From a virus (Duplodnaviria > Heunggongvirae > Uroviricota > Caudoviricetes), in the IMG/VR virus record IMGVR_UViG_2585427755_000008, positions 1 through 5,073 of that record: 5,073 nucleotides of DNA; one strand, given 5' to 3'. How positions within the stretch are numbered: the first letter of the stretch is position 1; each line of letters begins with the position of its first letter. Of this stretch, positions 115 to 5,073 are shown in pieces. The translations under genes and the position numbers were made by a program. The notes under the pieces were generated by a model that was not told the DNA's origin, did no database searches, and was given only the letters and a program-made list of their open reading frames with translations.

Positions 115-190
115 GCCGATATAGCTCAGTTGGTAGAGCAGCGCATTCGTAATGCGAAGGTCGTAGGTTCGACTCCTATTATCGGCACCA
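115..190 (+). tRNA. thrW: tRNA-Thr, anticodon CGU
   Basis: Cloverleaf folded by hand: acceptor 5' GCCGATA (115-121) pairs with TATCGGC (180-186); D-arm GCTC/AGTTGGTA/GAGC (124-139); anticodon loop TTCGTAA with anticodon CGT at 148-150; T-arm GTAGG/TTCGACT/CCTAT (163-179); discriminator A187; encoded CCA at 188-190. Length 76 nt. It matches my memory of enterobacterial thrW, the attachment site of phage P22. Confidence 0.9.
145..190. other. Probable attL core (tRNA 3' portion shared between host attB and phage attP)
   Basis: Inference: the integrase stop codon is only 15 nt beyond the tRNA 3' end, so the recombination core must lie in the 3' part of the tRNA. From memory, P22 uses a core of about 46 bp running from the anticodon loop to the CCA end of thrW; the exact limits cannot be set without the attR end. 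Confidence 0.4.
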
Positions 191-204
191 TTTAAATCAA
201 TAAG

Positions 205-1368
205 TTACACATCATTAGTACCTTCCTTATTTTTTGACTGGGACAAATTTGGGACCGATGGGTTCAGGATCGAGTCTATTTGCCGTGCGTGTTCGGTAAG
301 GTGATTAGGTGCAAGGTGAGCATATCGACGAACCATTTCGATAGACTCCCAGCCTCCCATTTCCTGTAACACTGACAACGGGACTCCGGCTTGAACCAGC
401 CAACTTGCCCACGTGTGTCTCAAGTCGTGAAATCTGAAATCATCAATACCAGCCCGTCTCAGCGCCGCTTTCCAGGCTGTGTTTGCGTCATACCGCATCT
501 TCCTTACTGTTGGCGCTTTCGTTCCGTCTGGTTTGGTACAGCTTTCCTTGTACACAAATACCCAACGGTGATGATTCCCGATTTGTTTTTTCAAAACGCG
601 ACATGCAGTATCATTCAGCGCAACGCCGATTGCGCGGTTTGATTTACTCTCTTCCGGGTTTATCCATGCCACCCGGCGCTGCATATCTATTTGTTGCCAT
701 TCAAGGTTGATGATGTTCGAGCGTCTTAAGCCTGTTGCCAGTGCAAATTCAACAACAGACTTTAATGGCTCCGGACATTCATCAATCAGCCTTTGTGCTT
801 CATGGGGCTCCAGCCAGCGGATCCGTTTATTCTTTGGTTGAGGCACTTTAATAATTGGTGCCTTATCCAGCATTTTCCATTCACGCTCTGCGGCTCTTAG
901 TAGGGCCTTTATAAATGAAAGATGCGTAGCCTTCGTTGCAACGGACGCTGGTTTTGGCGTGTATTCTGGAACAGGTTTCCCTTTTTTTCTGCATGCTTCT
1001 GCCCTGAGTTTCCAGTTTTCCTCATGACGCCGGTTCGTCATTTTCTGCATTGCTGAATAAATTTTTGATTCAGTAATGTCTCTTAGTTGCATTCCTGCGA
1101 AATGTTGAAGCCAGAATCCGATCCGGCTTTTGTCATCGTCCAGTGATTTTTTATGTGCTTTCTCTTCAAGCCACCTGACACACGCTTCCTCGAACGTTAT
1201 ATCAGGTATTTCACCAAGTTTGCTGACCCGCCATGCTTCAGCCTTTAGCTTGTCATGGAGTTCTGTCGCCTGCCTTTTGTCCTTTGTTCCAAGAGACTGT
1301 TTAAATCTTTTACCGTTCGGCAATGTGAAACTGGCGTACCATATTTCACCTCTGCGGAAGAGTGACAT
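205..1368 (-). CDS. int: Tyrosine site-specific integrase (lambda/P22 Int family), 387 aa
   Basis: ATG at 1368..1366 preceded by GAGGAAAG; TAA stop at 207..205. C-terminal catalytic signature HDLRHTWAS (H-x-x-R) and [15 protein letters not shown] (catalytic Tyr). The N-terminus [46 protein letters not shown] closely matches my memory of P22 Int, and the length agrees (387 aa). Confidence 0.95.
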
Positions 1369-1595
1369 TTTCTTTCCTCTGTTATGCCATCACCCGCGCT
1401 CACCTGGACAGTATGCAGCGGAGACTGAAGAGCCGCAATGCAGGCTTGTCGTGTTGTGAGGTAAGGAGATTTATTCTTAGTGGGATCTTTGCGTGTTGCC
1501 TGAAGACGCCCTGTGCGTATCCAGTTAATGGCAGTCGGTCTGGATATCTTGAGAAAATGACAGGCCTCATCGAGTGTGAGGCTGTATGGCTCCAT
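1245..1595 (-). CDS. xis: Excisionase (Xis, winged-helix/AlpA-like DNA-binding), 116 aa
   Basis: ATG at 1595..1593 with SD GAGGTG 5 nt upstream; the N-terminus [31 protein letters not shown] is a typical excisionase HTH/wing. Its 3' end overlaps the int start by 124 nt in another frame. The longer 144-aa form in the ORF track (from 1679) has no comparable RBS and overlaps the upstream gene. Confidence 0.8.
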
Positions 1596-1900
1596 TATTT
1601 CACCTCTTGCTGTGACATTGTTGAAAAATGGATACCAGCTCGTTGCTGCCAGACGATCCAACCGAGAGTCATATCCCATGCCATGTATTCGTTATCGTCG
1701 TTTTTTGCTCTCCGACGATCTACTAAGTCACCGAAACGCTTTTCCATGAATAATTCATAAGCTTCGCGTTCATCTGGTTCTACTTCCAGAGATAGGAGTG
1801 CGATTTCATAAGCACGGCGCTCAATATCGTCTCGCACGTCAAGGCTGCTGATACGCTCTTTAATTTCTTTAATCAGTTCTTTGTCGGTAAAAGTGGTCAT
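1595..1900 (-). CDS. Hypothetical acidic early-left (ea-region) protein, 101 aa
   Basis: ATG at 1900..1898 preceded by AAGGAG with a 6-nt spacer; TAA stop at 1597..1595 overlaps the xis ATG (TAATG). The protein is highly charged and acidic with predicted helical character. No family recognised. Confidence 0.7.
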   Translation of the reverse strand: MTTFTDKELIKEIKERISSLDVRDDIERRAYEIALLSLEVEPDEREAYELFMEKRFGDLVDRRRAKNDDNEYMAWDMTLGWIVWQQRAGIHFSTMSQQEVK

Positions 1901-1910
1901 GTGTTACTCC

Positions 1911-2174
1911 TTAACCCGCAGTGCTTTCAACTGACGAGGGGAACAAAATCTTTTCATCAAATCCGGCATTCATATCATGGACAGCAACACACCAATCCAT
2001 TGACGAACGATTATCAAGAGCCTCCATGATTTCATCCATGCGGCGTAGGTCATACAGGTAAATATTTTTATCGCCAATGGTGTAAAAACCAATTTTTTTC
2101 GGTGATGGACAGCGATCAATAACGTCCTGTAATTCGTTCAACCATGCCTGTTCTTTTTTTGTCAAAGTTGCCAT
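1911..2174 (-). CDS. Hypothetical phage protein, 87 aa
   Basis: ATG at 2174..2172 preceded by AAGGAAAA. The ORF-track version (117 aa) starts at a TTG at 2264 and would overlap the upstream gene, so I prefer the internal ATG. The TAA stop at 1913..1911 is embedded in the SD of the next gene. No family recognised. Confidence 0.65.
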   Translation of the reverse strand: MATLTKKEQAWLNELQDVIDRCPSPKKIGFYTIGDKNIYLYDLRRMDEIMEALDNRSSMDWCVAVHDMNAGFDEKILFPSSVESTAG

Positions 2175-2175
2175 A

Positions 2176-2394
2176 TCAGTTTTCCTTATACGGATTAATT
2201 TTATTGTGCAGTGTGTTGAACGACGCCCATACCACGTCGTTATACAATTCAATAACTGGCTCAATTATTTTCCCGATTGCCCAGACAAAAATTAGCGGGG
2301 ATATCGGTATCATCAACACGATAAACAGAATGAGAAACAGGAATTCTGTCGTTCTACTCTTTCGCGGATATTCTTTTCTGAATAATGTCGGCAC
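2176..2394 (-). CDS. Small predicted single-pass membrane protein, 72 aa (GTG start)
   Basis: GTG at 2394..2392 preceded by a strong AAGGAG with a 6-nt spacer. Basic N-terminus (RKEYPRKSR) followed by a hydrophobic stretch of about 24 residues (FLFLILFIVLMIPISPLIFVWAIG). TGA stop at 2178..2176 sits 1 nt from the next ATG. A non-ATG start and short length lower the confidence. Confidence 0.55.
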   Translation of the reverse strand: MPTLFRKEYPRKSRTTEFLFLILFIVLMIPISPLIFVWAIGKIIEPVIELYNDVVWASFNTLHNKINPYKEN

Positions 2395-2395
2395 A

Positions 2396-2728
2396 TCACT
2401 CTCCTTTGATGCGAATGCCAGCGACGCGTAGTGCGTGTTCTAAGTCAATCAGGCAAAGCCAACTGCCATTTTCTTTAGGTATCATGACATGTCGCTTATC
2501 AGCATTTATTGGGTGCCCATATCGAAGGTCGTAGCGAGTCGGTAATTGAACTTCCCTCGCTTCCAGTTCTGTAATGCGTTTGTTTTTAGCTTCTAGTTCA
2601 TCCAGCAGCGCCAGCACAACCTGCGGTGTGACTTTCATACGAAATGCCAGCAATTTTTGTGGTGTGGCTACTATTTTTATTGCTTCTGCCGCCTCACGCA
2701 GTGCCTGATAGTTAATTTTGGTTGTCAT
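2396..2728 (-). CDS. Hypothetical ea-region protein, 110 aa (N-terminus reminiscent of Ead/Ea22-like prophage proteins)
   Basis: ATG at 2728..2726 preceded by GAGGTGG and overlapping the upstream stop (ATGA). The N-terminal motif YQALREAAEA...TPQ and the helical segment LDELEAKNKRITELEAREV resemble, from memory only, the N-terminal regions of Ead/Ea22-like proteins; this is unverified. Confidence 0.7.
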   Translation of the reverse strand: MTTKINYQALREAAEAIKIVATPQKLLAFRMKVTPQVVLALLDELEAKNKRITELEAREVQLPTRYDLRYGHPINADKRHVMIPKENGSWLCLIDLEHALRVAGIRIKGE

Positions 2729-3603
2729 GCCACCACCTCTTCGAATTTCAACTCCAATTGATCACCCCAGATTTCACATGACTCTGAACACGAGCCGGTA
2801 TCGAATCGCCTGGCTTGCACCATCGCCTGATACAAATTTCTGTAGTCGCTGTCGGCATACATTCTGGCAATCCCGTCAAGACTCAGATGACCACGGTACA
2901 TAACGTCTTTATCTGTCTTTCGGTGACCATCCCGGACGTGTTTACCTGTAACCAGCTCATTAAAAACTCTCATCAGACCAGGTTCGTCTTTACATGCAAG
3001 CCCCAGCTTTTGCGTGGACTTTTTGATGCAGAAAACACAGTTCCCGAGGTGCTCCGGGATTTGCAAATCAAAAGGTTGTTTATGCCACCACCGGATAACA
3101 TCCGACTTATCAAAATCAGATAGCTCGGCAAGATACCGGACGCCTGATTTCGGTTTCAGCCTACGAGGTTCGTCTGCACGAATACCCAGCCATGTGATGT
3201 AATTCCCTCGTCCGAAATGGTCATCGCAGTATTTTGTGAAGGGGGTGAGTTTTAATCTGTCAGTGCAGAACGCGCCGCCGATGTATGGCGTGCCATATTT
3301 TTTTACCATGTCCATAAACGGTTTAAGCACCGGCATTCGCGTCTGAATATCCTTTGGTTCCCATTCCGTATAACCATTTGGCTGCCCAAGCTCTGGATTT
3401 ATATCGACCTGCAACACAGTTAGCGGTATGCCCCAGAACTTCACAACCTCCCGAATAAAGCGGTATGTCAGCGGATGTTCGCAACCGGTATCCATAAAGA
3501 TGTAGCAGACGTTATTACCAGCCTTTCTTTGTTCTTCCATCAGGTGAACAAGATATGCAGATGTTCTCCCGCCAGAAAAACTAACTACATGAGTTATGCA
3601 CAT
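2725..3603 (-). CDS. PAPS-reductase-like PP-loop ATP pyrophosphatase family protein, 292 aa
   Basis: ATG at 3603..3601 overlaps the end of the upstream HD gene by 10 nt. N-terminal PP-loop-type motif VVSFSGGRTSAYL (SGGxxS variant of SGGxDS) at residues 6-18. Cysteine motifs CVFC (residues 189-192) and CSESC (272-276). The length and motif placement are typical of phage-encoded PAPS reductase / DndC-like proteins. Confidence 0.85.
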   Translation of the reverse strand: MCITHVVSFSGGRTSAYLVHLMEEQRKAGNNVCYIFMDTGCEHPLTYRFIREVVKFWGIPLTVLQVDINPELGQPNGYTEWEPKDIQTRMPVLKPFMDMVKKYGTPYIGGAFCTDRLKLTPFTKYCDDHFGRGNYITWLGIRADEPRRLKPKSGVRYLAELSDFDKSDVIRWWHKQPFDLQIPEHLGNCVFCIKKSTQKLGLACKDEPGLMRVFNELVTGKHVRDGHRKTDKDVMYRGHLSLDGIARMYADSDYRNLYQAMVQARRFDTGSCSESCEIWGDQLELKFEEVVA

Positions 3604-4130
3604 TTGCGTAATTCCGATAACTCGTTGAAGCGTGCCATAAACATCCCGTAGGCATGGCCCGGTGCCAGTGGAATCACGTTGAACATCTCTGTTGCCGGGA
3701 TGCCTTCTAGTACAGGCCAGAAAGAGCCATCATCAAGCCCGAGATCGCGGCGTTCGGTTGCCAGCATGATGAGATCGGCATATTTCACGGGTGTACTCAT
3801 AACCGGGGGTAACCCGTATTTCTCACGGATTACGGCGTCTATTTTTTCTTCCATCCGTTTATAGTCAGGAAGAAGGCGTTTCAGTGGAGCGGGAATATCC
3901 TGGCAATACGCTTCTGTTGCATCATGCATTAACGCTTCAAAAGCAAATTCCTGCGGCACCAGCTGGCTGCAAAGCACCGCATGCTGGGCGACACTGTAGA
4001 AGTGTGAAAGATGTCCTGCAAAGCGACAGATATTTGAAAGGGAAACCGCGATATCGTTAATAACGATGTCGTCTTTATTTATCTTGTCATAATAAAAATG
4101 CTTCCCGGAAAAAGTTTTAATAAATGACAT
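3594..4130 (-). CDS. HD-domain phosphohydrolase, YfbR-like 5'-deoxynucleotidase family, 178 aa
   Basis: ATG at 4130..4128 preceded by GGAG with a 6-nt spacer; the ORF-track start at 4157 is a GTG with no SD. HD signature: an H in HFYSVAQHAV and the HD pair plus downstream D in ALMHDATEAYCQDIPAPLK, which closely parallels the E. coli YfbR segment MYHDASEVLTGDLPTPVK as I remember it. Confidence 0.85.
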   Translation of the reverse strand: MSFIKTFSGKHFYYDKINKDDIVINDIAVSLSNICRFAGHLSHFYSVAQHAVLCSQLVPQEFAFEALMHDATEAYCQDIPAPLKRLLPDYKRMEEKIDAVIREKYGLPPVMSTPVKYADLIMLATERRDLGLDDGSFWPVLEGIPATEMFNVIPLAPGHAYGMFMARFNELSELRKCA

Positions 4131-4223
4131 TTTGTTCTCCACGTATATGCGCTGCACCGCGCTGAATTCTGGTAAAAGGAAGCCCTCACCATCCGGCGAT
4201 TATTGAGTAAATTATGTTTCCAT

Positions 4224-4245
4224 AAATGCCCCCGCAGGGGCATTT
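4224..4245 (-). terminator. Putative intrinsic terminator/attenuator hairpin (9-bp stem, 4-nt loop)
   Basis: Perfect inverted repeat AAATGCCCC-CGCA-GGGGCATTT. On the - strand transcript it lies 12 nt after the DUF2303-like stop (4258) and is followed by AUUUAUGG, a weak U-tract. It sits between two co-directional genes of the early-left operon. Confidence 0.4.
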
Positions 4246-4257
4246 GCAGTAATGAAA

Positions 4258-5073
4258 TCAGGCGGTGAAAGTACCAATAAAGGTTTCTACTTTGCTGTCT
4301 TTAAATTTCTCAACAAGCAGATCACGAAATTCGTTAGCCATTTCTTCCTGCACCGCTTCCAGCTGAATAATGCGCAGAACCAGTACAGGACGATCGCCAG
4401 TGATAATGCTGAGGCGTAATTTAAACGGACGTTCTTTCAGGCCTTCAAACGGAACGCATTTAAATTCAAATGCCACTGGCATAATGTCTTTGGTCTTCGC
4501 TTCGACAGACTCCATCAGGGAGCGTTTGCCGCTGAAGTCATTGTCTTCAAAATCAGCGGTCTGGTTCGCTTCAATTGTGATTTTACGGATCGCCGCAGCC
4601 GCTTTGGTTGCCTGAATGGCGTCACCATTAGCATCAAAGCCCACAAGGTAGTCGGCCCAGTCTTCAATCCATTCTGCCAGTGACTTTTGGGAGTTACGCT
4701 CGCCATTAACAGACAACAGAGCAGAGAACGGTGCTGTCTTTTTCAGTTTGAGAGTGGCGGTGTTATCTGCGTGACCTGGTTCATCAATAGTACCCAGGTT
4801 AAGCACACTGACGGCACGCATATTATCGGCATCGATAAAGCAGCGGGTGCCTTCATCTGCAAGATCTTTAGAATAACGGGTAAAGTCATCGATGCTGGCA
4901 GTGGAAAGCGCACCACGGAAACGGAAGCGATTTAAATTAAATTTTTCCAGATCATGAATGCGGAAATTCTCAGGCAATGCCACAGCATCGGCACCAATCT
5001 TACTGATAATTTCATTAACACCCTGAGCAGAAATAAGGGCATGGATTTGATTAATTGCGGTTGCGTCTAAGTT
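4258..5073 (-). CDS. Conserved prophage protein, possibly DUF2303/YfdQ-like; 5' end lies beyond the window (at least 271 aa)
   Basis: TGA stop at 4260..4258. The reading frame stays open on the - strand all the way to position 5073, upstream of the GTG at 4983 that the ORF track used as a start, so the true start is outside the window. Family assignment is from memory of the size and genomic context of YfdQ-like proteins and is unverified. Confidence 0.7.

Follow-up and report, generated by a model that had tools for sequence, protein, structure and literature searches.

A prophage early-left block as a probable mosaic of yfdQRT and a NinC-family PP-loop gene

The stretch of DNA considered here, which we call the window, comprises the first 5,073 nucleotides of the virus record IMGVR_UViG_2585427755_000008 (Caudoviricetes, IMG/VR), and the block in question consists of three genes on its minus strand (Table 1), encoding a PP-loop ATP-pyrophosphatase of the phosphoadenosine phosphosulfate (PAPS) reductase superfamily, the HD-domain protein YfdR, and YfdQ of the DUF2303 family. 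All three had been recognized in a first-pass annotation made from the letters alone, and the open reading frames (ORFs), Pfam matches and RefSeq names bear out both their existence and the PP-loop and HD classes assigned to them, the motifs being intact in each. That annotation went on to propose that the HD and PP-loop proteins form a coordinated pair acting on nucleotides or nucleic acid, and it missed the close homology of the PP-loop protein, as judged from full-length alignment, to NinC of phage lambda. We propose instead, with a probability of about 0.55, that the block combines two independently assorting modules of a lambdoid early-left operon of the kind seen in Shigella phage SfV and in the cryptic prophage CPS-53, namely yfdQRT and a NinC-family enzyme of DNA modification or counter-restriction. 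The first module would consist of yfdQ-yfdR together with yfdT further downstream, as orthologues of the Escherichia coli K-12 CPS-53 genes, and the second would be the NinC-family gene, which apparently arrived with a 1.7-kb cassette in place of yfdS.

The joint between yfdR and the ninC-like gene

The last codons of yfdR contain the ATG of the ninC-like gene, so that the two genes overlap by 10 nt (ATGTGCATAA). This overlap is real and is annotated likewise in the nearest complete genome, E. coli NZ_CP098178, which matches the whole window at 99.8%. However, in both K-12 and SfV yfdR overlaps the unrelated gene yfdS by the same 10 nt, and when the three sequences are aligned, the downstream start codon lies in each case within the conserved yfdR tail, while similarity ends at the yfdR stop. 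The mosaic breakpoint thus lies directly downstream of the ninC-like start. The yfdR tail is where recombination joined the two segments, which explains why it contains this start codon. Tight packing is moreover the local norm, since at the remaining junctions within 1900-3603 the genes are separated by 1 to 10 nt or overlap by 4 nt, and therefore the overlap marks no special fusion of the HD and PP-loop genes into one translational unit, as had been claimed.

Comparison with SfV by blastn delimits the cassette precisely. Window positions 145-1900 and 3596-5073 are 99.3% and 97.4% identical to SfV, respectively, no match is found in 1901-3595, and homology to SfV as well as to K-12 ends at position 3596. 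Because the unmatched segment lies between flanks that are 97-99% identical, the ninC-like gene must have arrived within a cassette of four genes, at whose site SfV holds the 363-nt orf29 (yfdS). The cassette is sharply bounded, precisely by the start of yfdT on one side and the stop of yfdR on the other, and is a clear case of mosaicism at gene boundaries. In the K-12 cryptic prophage CPS-53 (KpLE1; yfdP-yfdQ-yfdR-yfdS-yfdT) and in SfV (orf28-32) the gene order is the same as in the window, YfdQ, YfdR and YfdT are 95-99% identical, and the homologous 127-nt spacer region between yfdQ and yfdR is shared along with the overlap at the yfdR stop, but both carry yfdS where the window has the cassette. 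CPS-53 further differs in lying at argW, whereas the prophage of the window lies at thrW. The displaced YfdS of K-12 is a DUF551 protein of 120 aa without BLASTP similarity to the ninC-like protein, and the idea that YfdS might be a degraded NinC was rejected on these grounds.

Among 5426 complete E. coli genomes, the ninC-like gene is present at a coverage of at least 80% in 488. The yfdR-yfdS junction is intact in 2282 of the 5426 and the yfdR-ninC-like junction in 283, making yfdR followed by yfdS about eight times commoner than yfdR followed by the ninC-like gene; about 79% of the yfdR-bearing genomes carry yfdS at this place instead. As a separate observation, 74 of the 595 E. coli matches to the ninC-like gene (query 2725-3593) are plasmid-borne, possibly on phage-plasmids.

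Neighbours of NinC were surveyed at IMG/VR loci by comparing the ORFs within 6 kb with phmmer, the more distant loci being gathered with lambda NinC and with a second, diverged NinC protein (P0110) as queries. At the 80 loci with a window-type NinC (at least 93% identity) YfdR was found at 63, YfdQ at 66 and NinB at none; for Dam, this group was scored by Dam-like ORFs within 6 kb, which occur at six loci, on the opposite strand. The lambda-type loci (37) have NinB at 35 and an adjacent Dam at 4, and the P0110-type loci (47) have NinB at 20 and an adjacent Dam at 10, so that the neighbours in these distant lineages are NinB and Dam methylases, and neither YfdR nor YfdQ lies within 6 kb at any of the 84. 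The pairing of yfdR with a ninC-like gene is therefore confined to one closely related group of alleles in Escherichia and Shigella prophages. A sister arrangement in Stx phages has a YfdQ of 52% identity, followed by an unrelated protein of 147 aa and then by the ninC-like gene, without overlap. This protein in the YfdR slot belongs to phrog_1363, a PHROG of unknown function (4450-4893 of locus L004; also L069-L081 and L085). It was considered as a cryptic HD protein and rejected, having no Pfam match, no similarity to YfdR and matches only to PHROGs of unknown function.

These data bear directly on the proposal that coupled translation joins the HD hydrolase to the PP-loop enzyme in a functional pair that works on nucleotides (through the deoxynucleoside monophosphate pool, base modification or thiolation), YfdQ serving as an accessory. 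The proposal can point to a genuine overlap, to catalytic motifs intact in both proteins, and to YfdR standing immediately upstream in those 63 close relatives and in the 283 E. coli genomes with the junction. Nevertheless, the overlap belongs to the 3′ end of yfdR and is common to an unrelated gene, the breakpoint lies at the yfdR stop codon, yfdS is by far the commoner partner, the distant NinC loci are devoid of YfdR and YfdQ, the sister arrangement has a different protein in the place of YfdR, and lambda possesses NinC without any HD partner. We consider the coupled pair improbable; judged from these alignments, it is lambdoid mosaicism that has given rise to the apparent pair. The first-pass annotation had itself named absence of co-occurrence in other genomes as the result that would count against its idea, and this is largely what was found, co-occurrence holding at most of the window-type loci and failing at all the lambda- and P0110-type ones. 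Its description was correct; the region it describes is ordinary prophage DNA that had been annotated before, and the idea of a coordinated pair is not supported. The use of the present analysis lies in clearing up an apparent enzyme pair.

The yfdQ, yfdR and yfdT genes

The likeness to the yfdQ-yfdR cluster of CPS-53, which the first-pass annotation had noted, turned out to be near-identity, since YfdR of the window and of K-12 agree at 176 of 178 residues, both differences lying within the C-terminal 20 residues, and YfdQ at 270 of 271. YfdR therefore belongs to the K-12 orthologue group by near-identity as well as by its HD motif residues. It matches phrog_318 (E = 2.8e-111) and the structure 2gz4 in the PDB (E = 1.9e-14), and His50, His69-Asp70, Asp78 and Asp119 are all present, which would be the equivalents of the metal ligands of E. 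coli YfbR, an HD-domain 5′-deoxynucleotidase. YfdR has the HD fold and the metal-binding H...HD...D motifs in common with YfbR, but differs from it by a much lower reported affinity for nucleotides and by its DnaA-binding activity (PMC4776307). The scores of YfbR-type models are consistent with that low affinity, as both stay below their curated cut-offs: 24.1 bits against 25.9 for the YfbR-like family PF12917, and 19.8 bits against 122 for the NCBIfam 5′-deoxynucleotidase model PRK03826. By these scores YfdR is a relative within the HD superfamily and not a YfbR equivalog.

The binding of DnaA by YfdR mentioned in the first-pass annotation is documented in a published paper. In K-12, YfdR is a weak 5′-deoxynucleotidase that binds domain I of DnaA (Noguchi and Katayama, 2016; PMC4776307), for which it competes with DiaA and DnaB, and the minimal set of genes that inhibits the initiation of replication is yfdQ and yfdR with either yfdS or yfdT, YfdQ being necessary for this multicopy phenotype (PMC4776307). 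Through its homologues of YfdQ, YfdR and YfdT the window encodes the full published set. Over-supplied YfdR, together with YfdQ and YfdT (or YfdS), would block initiation at oriC, and by analogy with the K-12 genes the likely role of yfdQRT in a live phage would be an early shutdown of host replication after induction or infection.

YfdQ of the window belongs to its family by a score of 288.6 bits for PF10065 against a cut-off of 26.6, over profile positions 31-269 of 269, the N-terminus being cut by the end of the window. The complete gene measures 825 nt (274 aa) in the RefSeq annotation of the nearest genome, of which the window lacks the first 9 nt, that is 3 codons, and it is this truncation that gives rise to the spurious 241-aa ORF listed with a GTG start. 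According to PMC12315714 (Genome Res 2025), no function is known for the YfdQ and YfdP types, and a part in recombination is judged unlikely there for yfdP, yfdQ and yfdR. The sole solved relative of YfdQ is the 36-chain PDB entry 9o7m, named "YfdQ protein" (E = 2e-44), on which we found no paper and whose number of chains suggests a large assembly; it is not among the Foldseek matches of the YfdQ model in PDB entries released up to 2026-04-08, and the predicted structure gave no informative fold match.

The NinC family and DNA marking

The PP-loop protein of 292 aa is placed in the PAPS_reduct superfamily by PF01507 (37.1 bits, cut-off 22.5), although the match covers residues 5-72 only, and by its PP-loop of the form SGGxxS. 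Searching phage genomes with tblastn, it was found to be 78.7% identical to NinC of lambda over residues 2-292, which places it in the NinC family by full-length homology, and it matches phrog_424 with E = 2e-93. Among 1.84 billion representative proteins searched with a profile, 353 belong to the family at E ≤ 1e-30. Among 24-26 relatives of 52-80% identity, the PP-loop S10-G11-G12-R13-x-S15, the motifs D38-T39-G40-x-E42-H43 and R142-x-D144-E145, and six cysteines (C113, C126, C189-x-x-C192 and C272-x-x-x-C276) are invariant, giving the strings SGGRTS, DTGxEH, GNCxFCxKK and CSESCE. Lambda NinC (ORF290 of the nin region) shares the size of the window protein and its invariant PP-loop and cysteine motifs. 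The two genes differ in place, since lambda ninC is flanked by ninB and ninD in the rightward nin region, whereas the copy of the window lies between yfdR and the ead/Ea22-like gene of the leftward early operon and thus away from ninB; location, however, is no measure of biochemical function. In K-12, lambda tolerates the loss of ninC (PMC10695390), as would be expected of a conditional counter-defence gene, and we found no report on the function of the protein.

The AlphaFold (AF2) model of the ninC-like protein, with a mean confidence (pLDDT) of 84.9, has a PP-loop fold and a disordered tail (266-292) that bears cysteines, and its nearest solved folds are reductases of adenosine phosphosulfate (APS) and PAPS, including the [4Fe-4S] APS reductase, along with CysD and LarE, at TM scores of 0.35-0.48. 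These folds, the Pfam match and the database name "phosphoadenosine phosphosulfate reductase" could be taken to mean that the gene is an auxiliary metabolic gene for a true PAPS or APS reductase of the CysH type, boosting sulfate assimilation of the host during infection. The catalytic motif of CysH is a C-terminal ECG[LI]H. This motif is not in the ninC-like sequence, whose tail reads GSCSESCEIW; the Pfam match is partial and the structural likeness remote; the score for the NCBIfam PAPS reductase model PRK02090 is 20.3 bits against a cut-off of 154; and the conserved partners of the family are NinB and DNA methyltransferases, fusions included. By its sequence the protein is thus not a CysH equivalog, the metabolic explanation is very improbable, and caution is needed against counting ninC-like genes as auxiliary genes of sulfur metabolism in viromes.

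A different direction is suggested by the fusions. Among the matches listed, eight NinC-family proteins exceed a length of about 450 aa, and six of them carry a fused N6-adenine DNA methyltransferase. The arrangements are Dam-NinC and NinC-Dam, both with a Dam of PF05869, and NinC with a D12-class methylase (PF02086). Fusions, none of which is encoded in the window, are seen in the proteins P0241, P0242, P0243, P0250, P0252, P0274 and P0097. As two methylase families are involved and both orders occur, NinC is linked to the marking of DNA. One of the fusions, annotated [quoted passage not shown] (P0097), shares 55% identity with the window protein, over 96% of the latter, and aligns with it through all of the invariant motifs, which establishes homology to the PAPS-reductase-like domain of p0018 of that phage. 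When p0018 (PAPS-Dam) and p0019 of 44E38.1 were moved into a sensitive phage, infection of a host carrying Dnd became possible (Piel et al., bioRxiv 2021, 10.1101/2021.05.05.442762; Nat Microbiol 2022), a result restated in a paper of 2026 that also notes PAPS reductases in anti-defence operons regulated by Aca (PMC13551039). The invariant motifs and the match to an SspD model are common to p0018 and the window protein, but p0018 carries a Dam domain, whereas Pfam finds no methyltransferase domain in the window protein and no Dam gene adjoins it.

Scanned with the defence models of PADLOC, the ninC-like protein is matched best by SspD (E = 1.5e-15, profile positions 2-125 of 277 only), followed by BrxP (E = 1e-4) and DndC (E = 9e-4), and no matches were obtained for those neighbouring window proteins that were scanned. 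These three serve as PP-loop subunits in DNA phosphorothioation systems (PMC12914056) and belong, like the ninC-like protein, to the PP-loop PAPS-reductase superfamily, but they reside in host defence islands, whereas the ninC-like gene is borne by a phage. We infer that the ninC-like protein is an ATP-dependent sulfur-transfer or adenylating enzyme, probably using an Fe-S cluster or a cysteine persulfide, with either of which its conserved cysteines would be compatible. It would act on DNA in counter-restriction, with phosphorothioate-dependent systems (Dnd or Ssp) as the most likely target, either by marking the phage DNA or by intercepting the phosphorothioation pathway of the host. Extended to the whole family, lambda NinC included, this becomes the tentative proposal, to which we give less than an even chance, that NinC is a stand-alone counter-defence enzyme that marks phage DNA by phosphorothioation or a related change dependent on ATP and sulfur, or else hijacks the Dnd/Ssp machinery of the host, such that the phage escapes phosphorothioate-dependent restriction. 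If this is true, NinC would be interchangeable with anti-restriction Dam methylases, to which it is often fused, and the copy in the window would be an anti-Dnd/Ssp gene that left the nin region for the early-left operon, so as to be expressed earlier. NinC-family proteins are candidates for phage counter-defence by DNA modification, which is the most useful lead here and one separate from that pursued by the first-pass annotation.

Two other functions have to be weighed for the family. It has been named "NinC-like recombination protein" in some records, and the proximity of NinB (Orf) at most of the lambda-type and many of the P0110-type loci, together with that of NinG (Rap) in the nin region, would suit a part in phage recombination or replication. 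However, the chemistry of PP-loop and cysteines gives no hint of recombination, the window copy is away from any NinB, the nin region is assembled mosaically from accessory genes unrelated to one another, and DNA marking is favoured both by the fusions to methyltransferases and by the anti-Dnd result, so that we regard this role as unlikely. The second possibility is modification of RNA (tRNA) or of a small molecule in the manner of TtcA, TtuA, NcsA or LarE, by which host translation or a cofactor pool would be reprogrammed. LarE, MnmA, NcsA and TtuA are indeed among the remote Foldseek matches, and the invariant cysteine motifs might be likened to those of Fe-S-dependent thiolases. The Foldseek matches named fall short of those to the APS and PAPS reductases, many with a large root-mean-square deviation, the fusions are to DNA methyltransferases and not to RNA enzymes, and the best defence model is SspD; such thiolation therefore has a low probability in our view.

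The reading of the block as yfdQRT plus a DNA-modifying NinC has several points weighing against it, beginning with the chemistry. Known phosphorothioation requires a nucleoside triphosphatase (NTPase) partner (DndD or SspC) and a partner for DNA recognition or nicking, and a lone PAPS-reductase gene gave no phosphorothioate in gut isolates (PMC12914056). Neither DndD/SspC nor DndE/SspB is annotated within 12 kb of the gene in the nearest complete genome, where no cysteine desulfurase gene is annotated near it either. With the NTPase and recognition subunits absent here, a lone NinC would therefore need host partners or a different chemistry. Moreover, the SspD match is restricted to the N-terminal half, the likeness of the model to solved PP-loop enzymes is remote, and the anti-Dnd result was obtained with a fusion protein transferred along with a second gene. 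As for independent assortment, YfdR is kept immediately upstream at 63 of the 80 window-type loci and two deeply diverged yfdP-yfdQ backgrounds both carry the window allele of ninC, so the ninC-like gene may have some functional tie to the yfdPQ module. Finally, the block of initiation by YfdQRST was seen only on over-expression from multicopy plasmids with genes of a cryptic prophage, deletion of yfdQRST had no phenotype, and the authors concede that the effect of over-expression may be an artefact (PMC4776307).

Prophage context and operon layout

The region of NZ_CP098178 that matches the window is a lambdoid prophage adjoining proA and a tRNA-Thr gene, and its RefSeq order is integrase, helix-turn-helix (HTH)/excisionase-like, yfdT, hypothetical, DUF4014, ead/Ea22-like, "phosphoadenosine phosphosulfate reductase family protein", yfdR, yfdQ and yfdP, with the repressor, replication, Q and lysis genes beyond yfdP. 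The same proteins thus already bear RefSeq names, and the region itself is routine. All long ORFs of the window are on the minus strand. The yfdQ, yfdR and ninC-like genes lie leftward of the repressor gene on the strand of int and xis and are therefore members of the early-left operon, where the first-pass annotation had rightly put them. A scan for internal promoters found 0 promoter-like sites in the block against 4.9 expected, which fits read-through from the early-left promoter. The designation of the phage as P22-like holds for the integrase and the thrW attachment site only, the flanks of the cassette being close to identical to SfV.

Table 1. Positions of the genes and other features in the 5,073-nt window.
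Feature	Position	Strand	Basis or remark
tRNA-Thr(CGT) gene	115-190	+	complete; abuts int
int	205-1368	-	integrase
yfdT homologue	1595-1900	-	96/101 identical to K-12 YfdT
1.7-kb mosaic cassette, four genes, in place of yfdS	1901-3595	-	blastn against SfV
Hypothetical gene in cassette	1911-2174	-	RefSeq names, nearest genome
DUF4014 gene in cassette	2176-2394	-	RefSeq names, nearest genome
ead/Ea22-like gene in cassette	2396-2728	-	RefSeq names, nearest genome
ninC-like gene, PP-loop ATP-pyrophosphatase of PAPS-reductase superfamily, 292 aa	2725-3603	-	PF01507 and lambda NinC homology
10-nt overlap yfdR/ninC-like	3594-3603	-	annotated likewise in nearest genome
yfdR, HD-domain protein, 178 aa	3594-4130	-	ATG at 4130 as in RefSeq and K-12
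GC-rich hairpin, AAUGCCCC-UGCG-GGGGCAUU	4225-4244	-	14 nt past yfdQ stop, in 127-nt yfdQ-yfdR spacer
yfdQ, DUF2303/YfdQ family	4258-5073	-	PF10065; 5′ end cut by window

For yfdR, the mechanical ORF starts from a GTG and extends over 3594-4157. The spacer between yfdQ and yfdR is the sole sizeable intergenic gap in the block and folds with -36.9 kcal/mol (z = -2.0). The hairpin within it has an 8-bp stem with no U-tract after it and was not called by the terminator scan; it could be an element of RNA processing or stability, or an attenuator of yfdR expression. In the cassette, the stop of the ninC-like gene and the start of the ead/Ea22-like gene share 4 nt (ATGA, 2725-2728), and the junctions that follow are gaps of 1 nt, a tight arrangement that suits translational coupling in this stretch of the operon.

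The integrase gene is adjoined by a complete gene for tRNA-Thr(CGT), so that the window begins at the attachment junction of the prophage at thrW, and in the nearest genome proA lies just outside. An excisionase-like ORF of 144 aa (1245-1679) overlaps the integrase ORF by 124 nt, as it does in the SfV annotation, and in its place the nearest E. coli record has an HTH gene of 351 nt abutting int. Over the match, which comes in two pieces, that record is longer than the window by 118 bp (5191 against 5073 bases).

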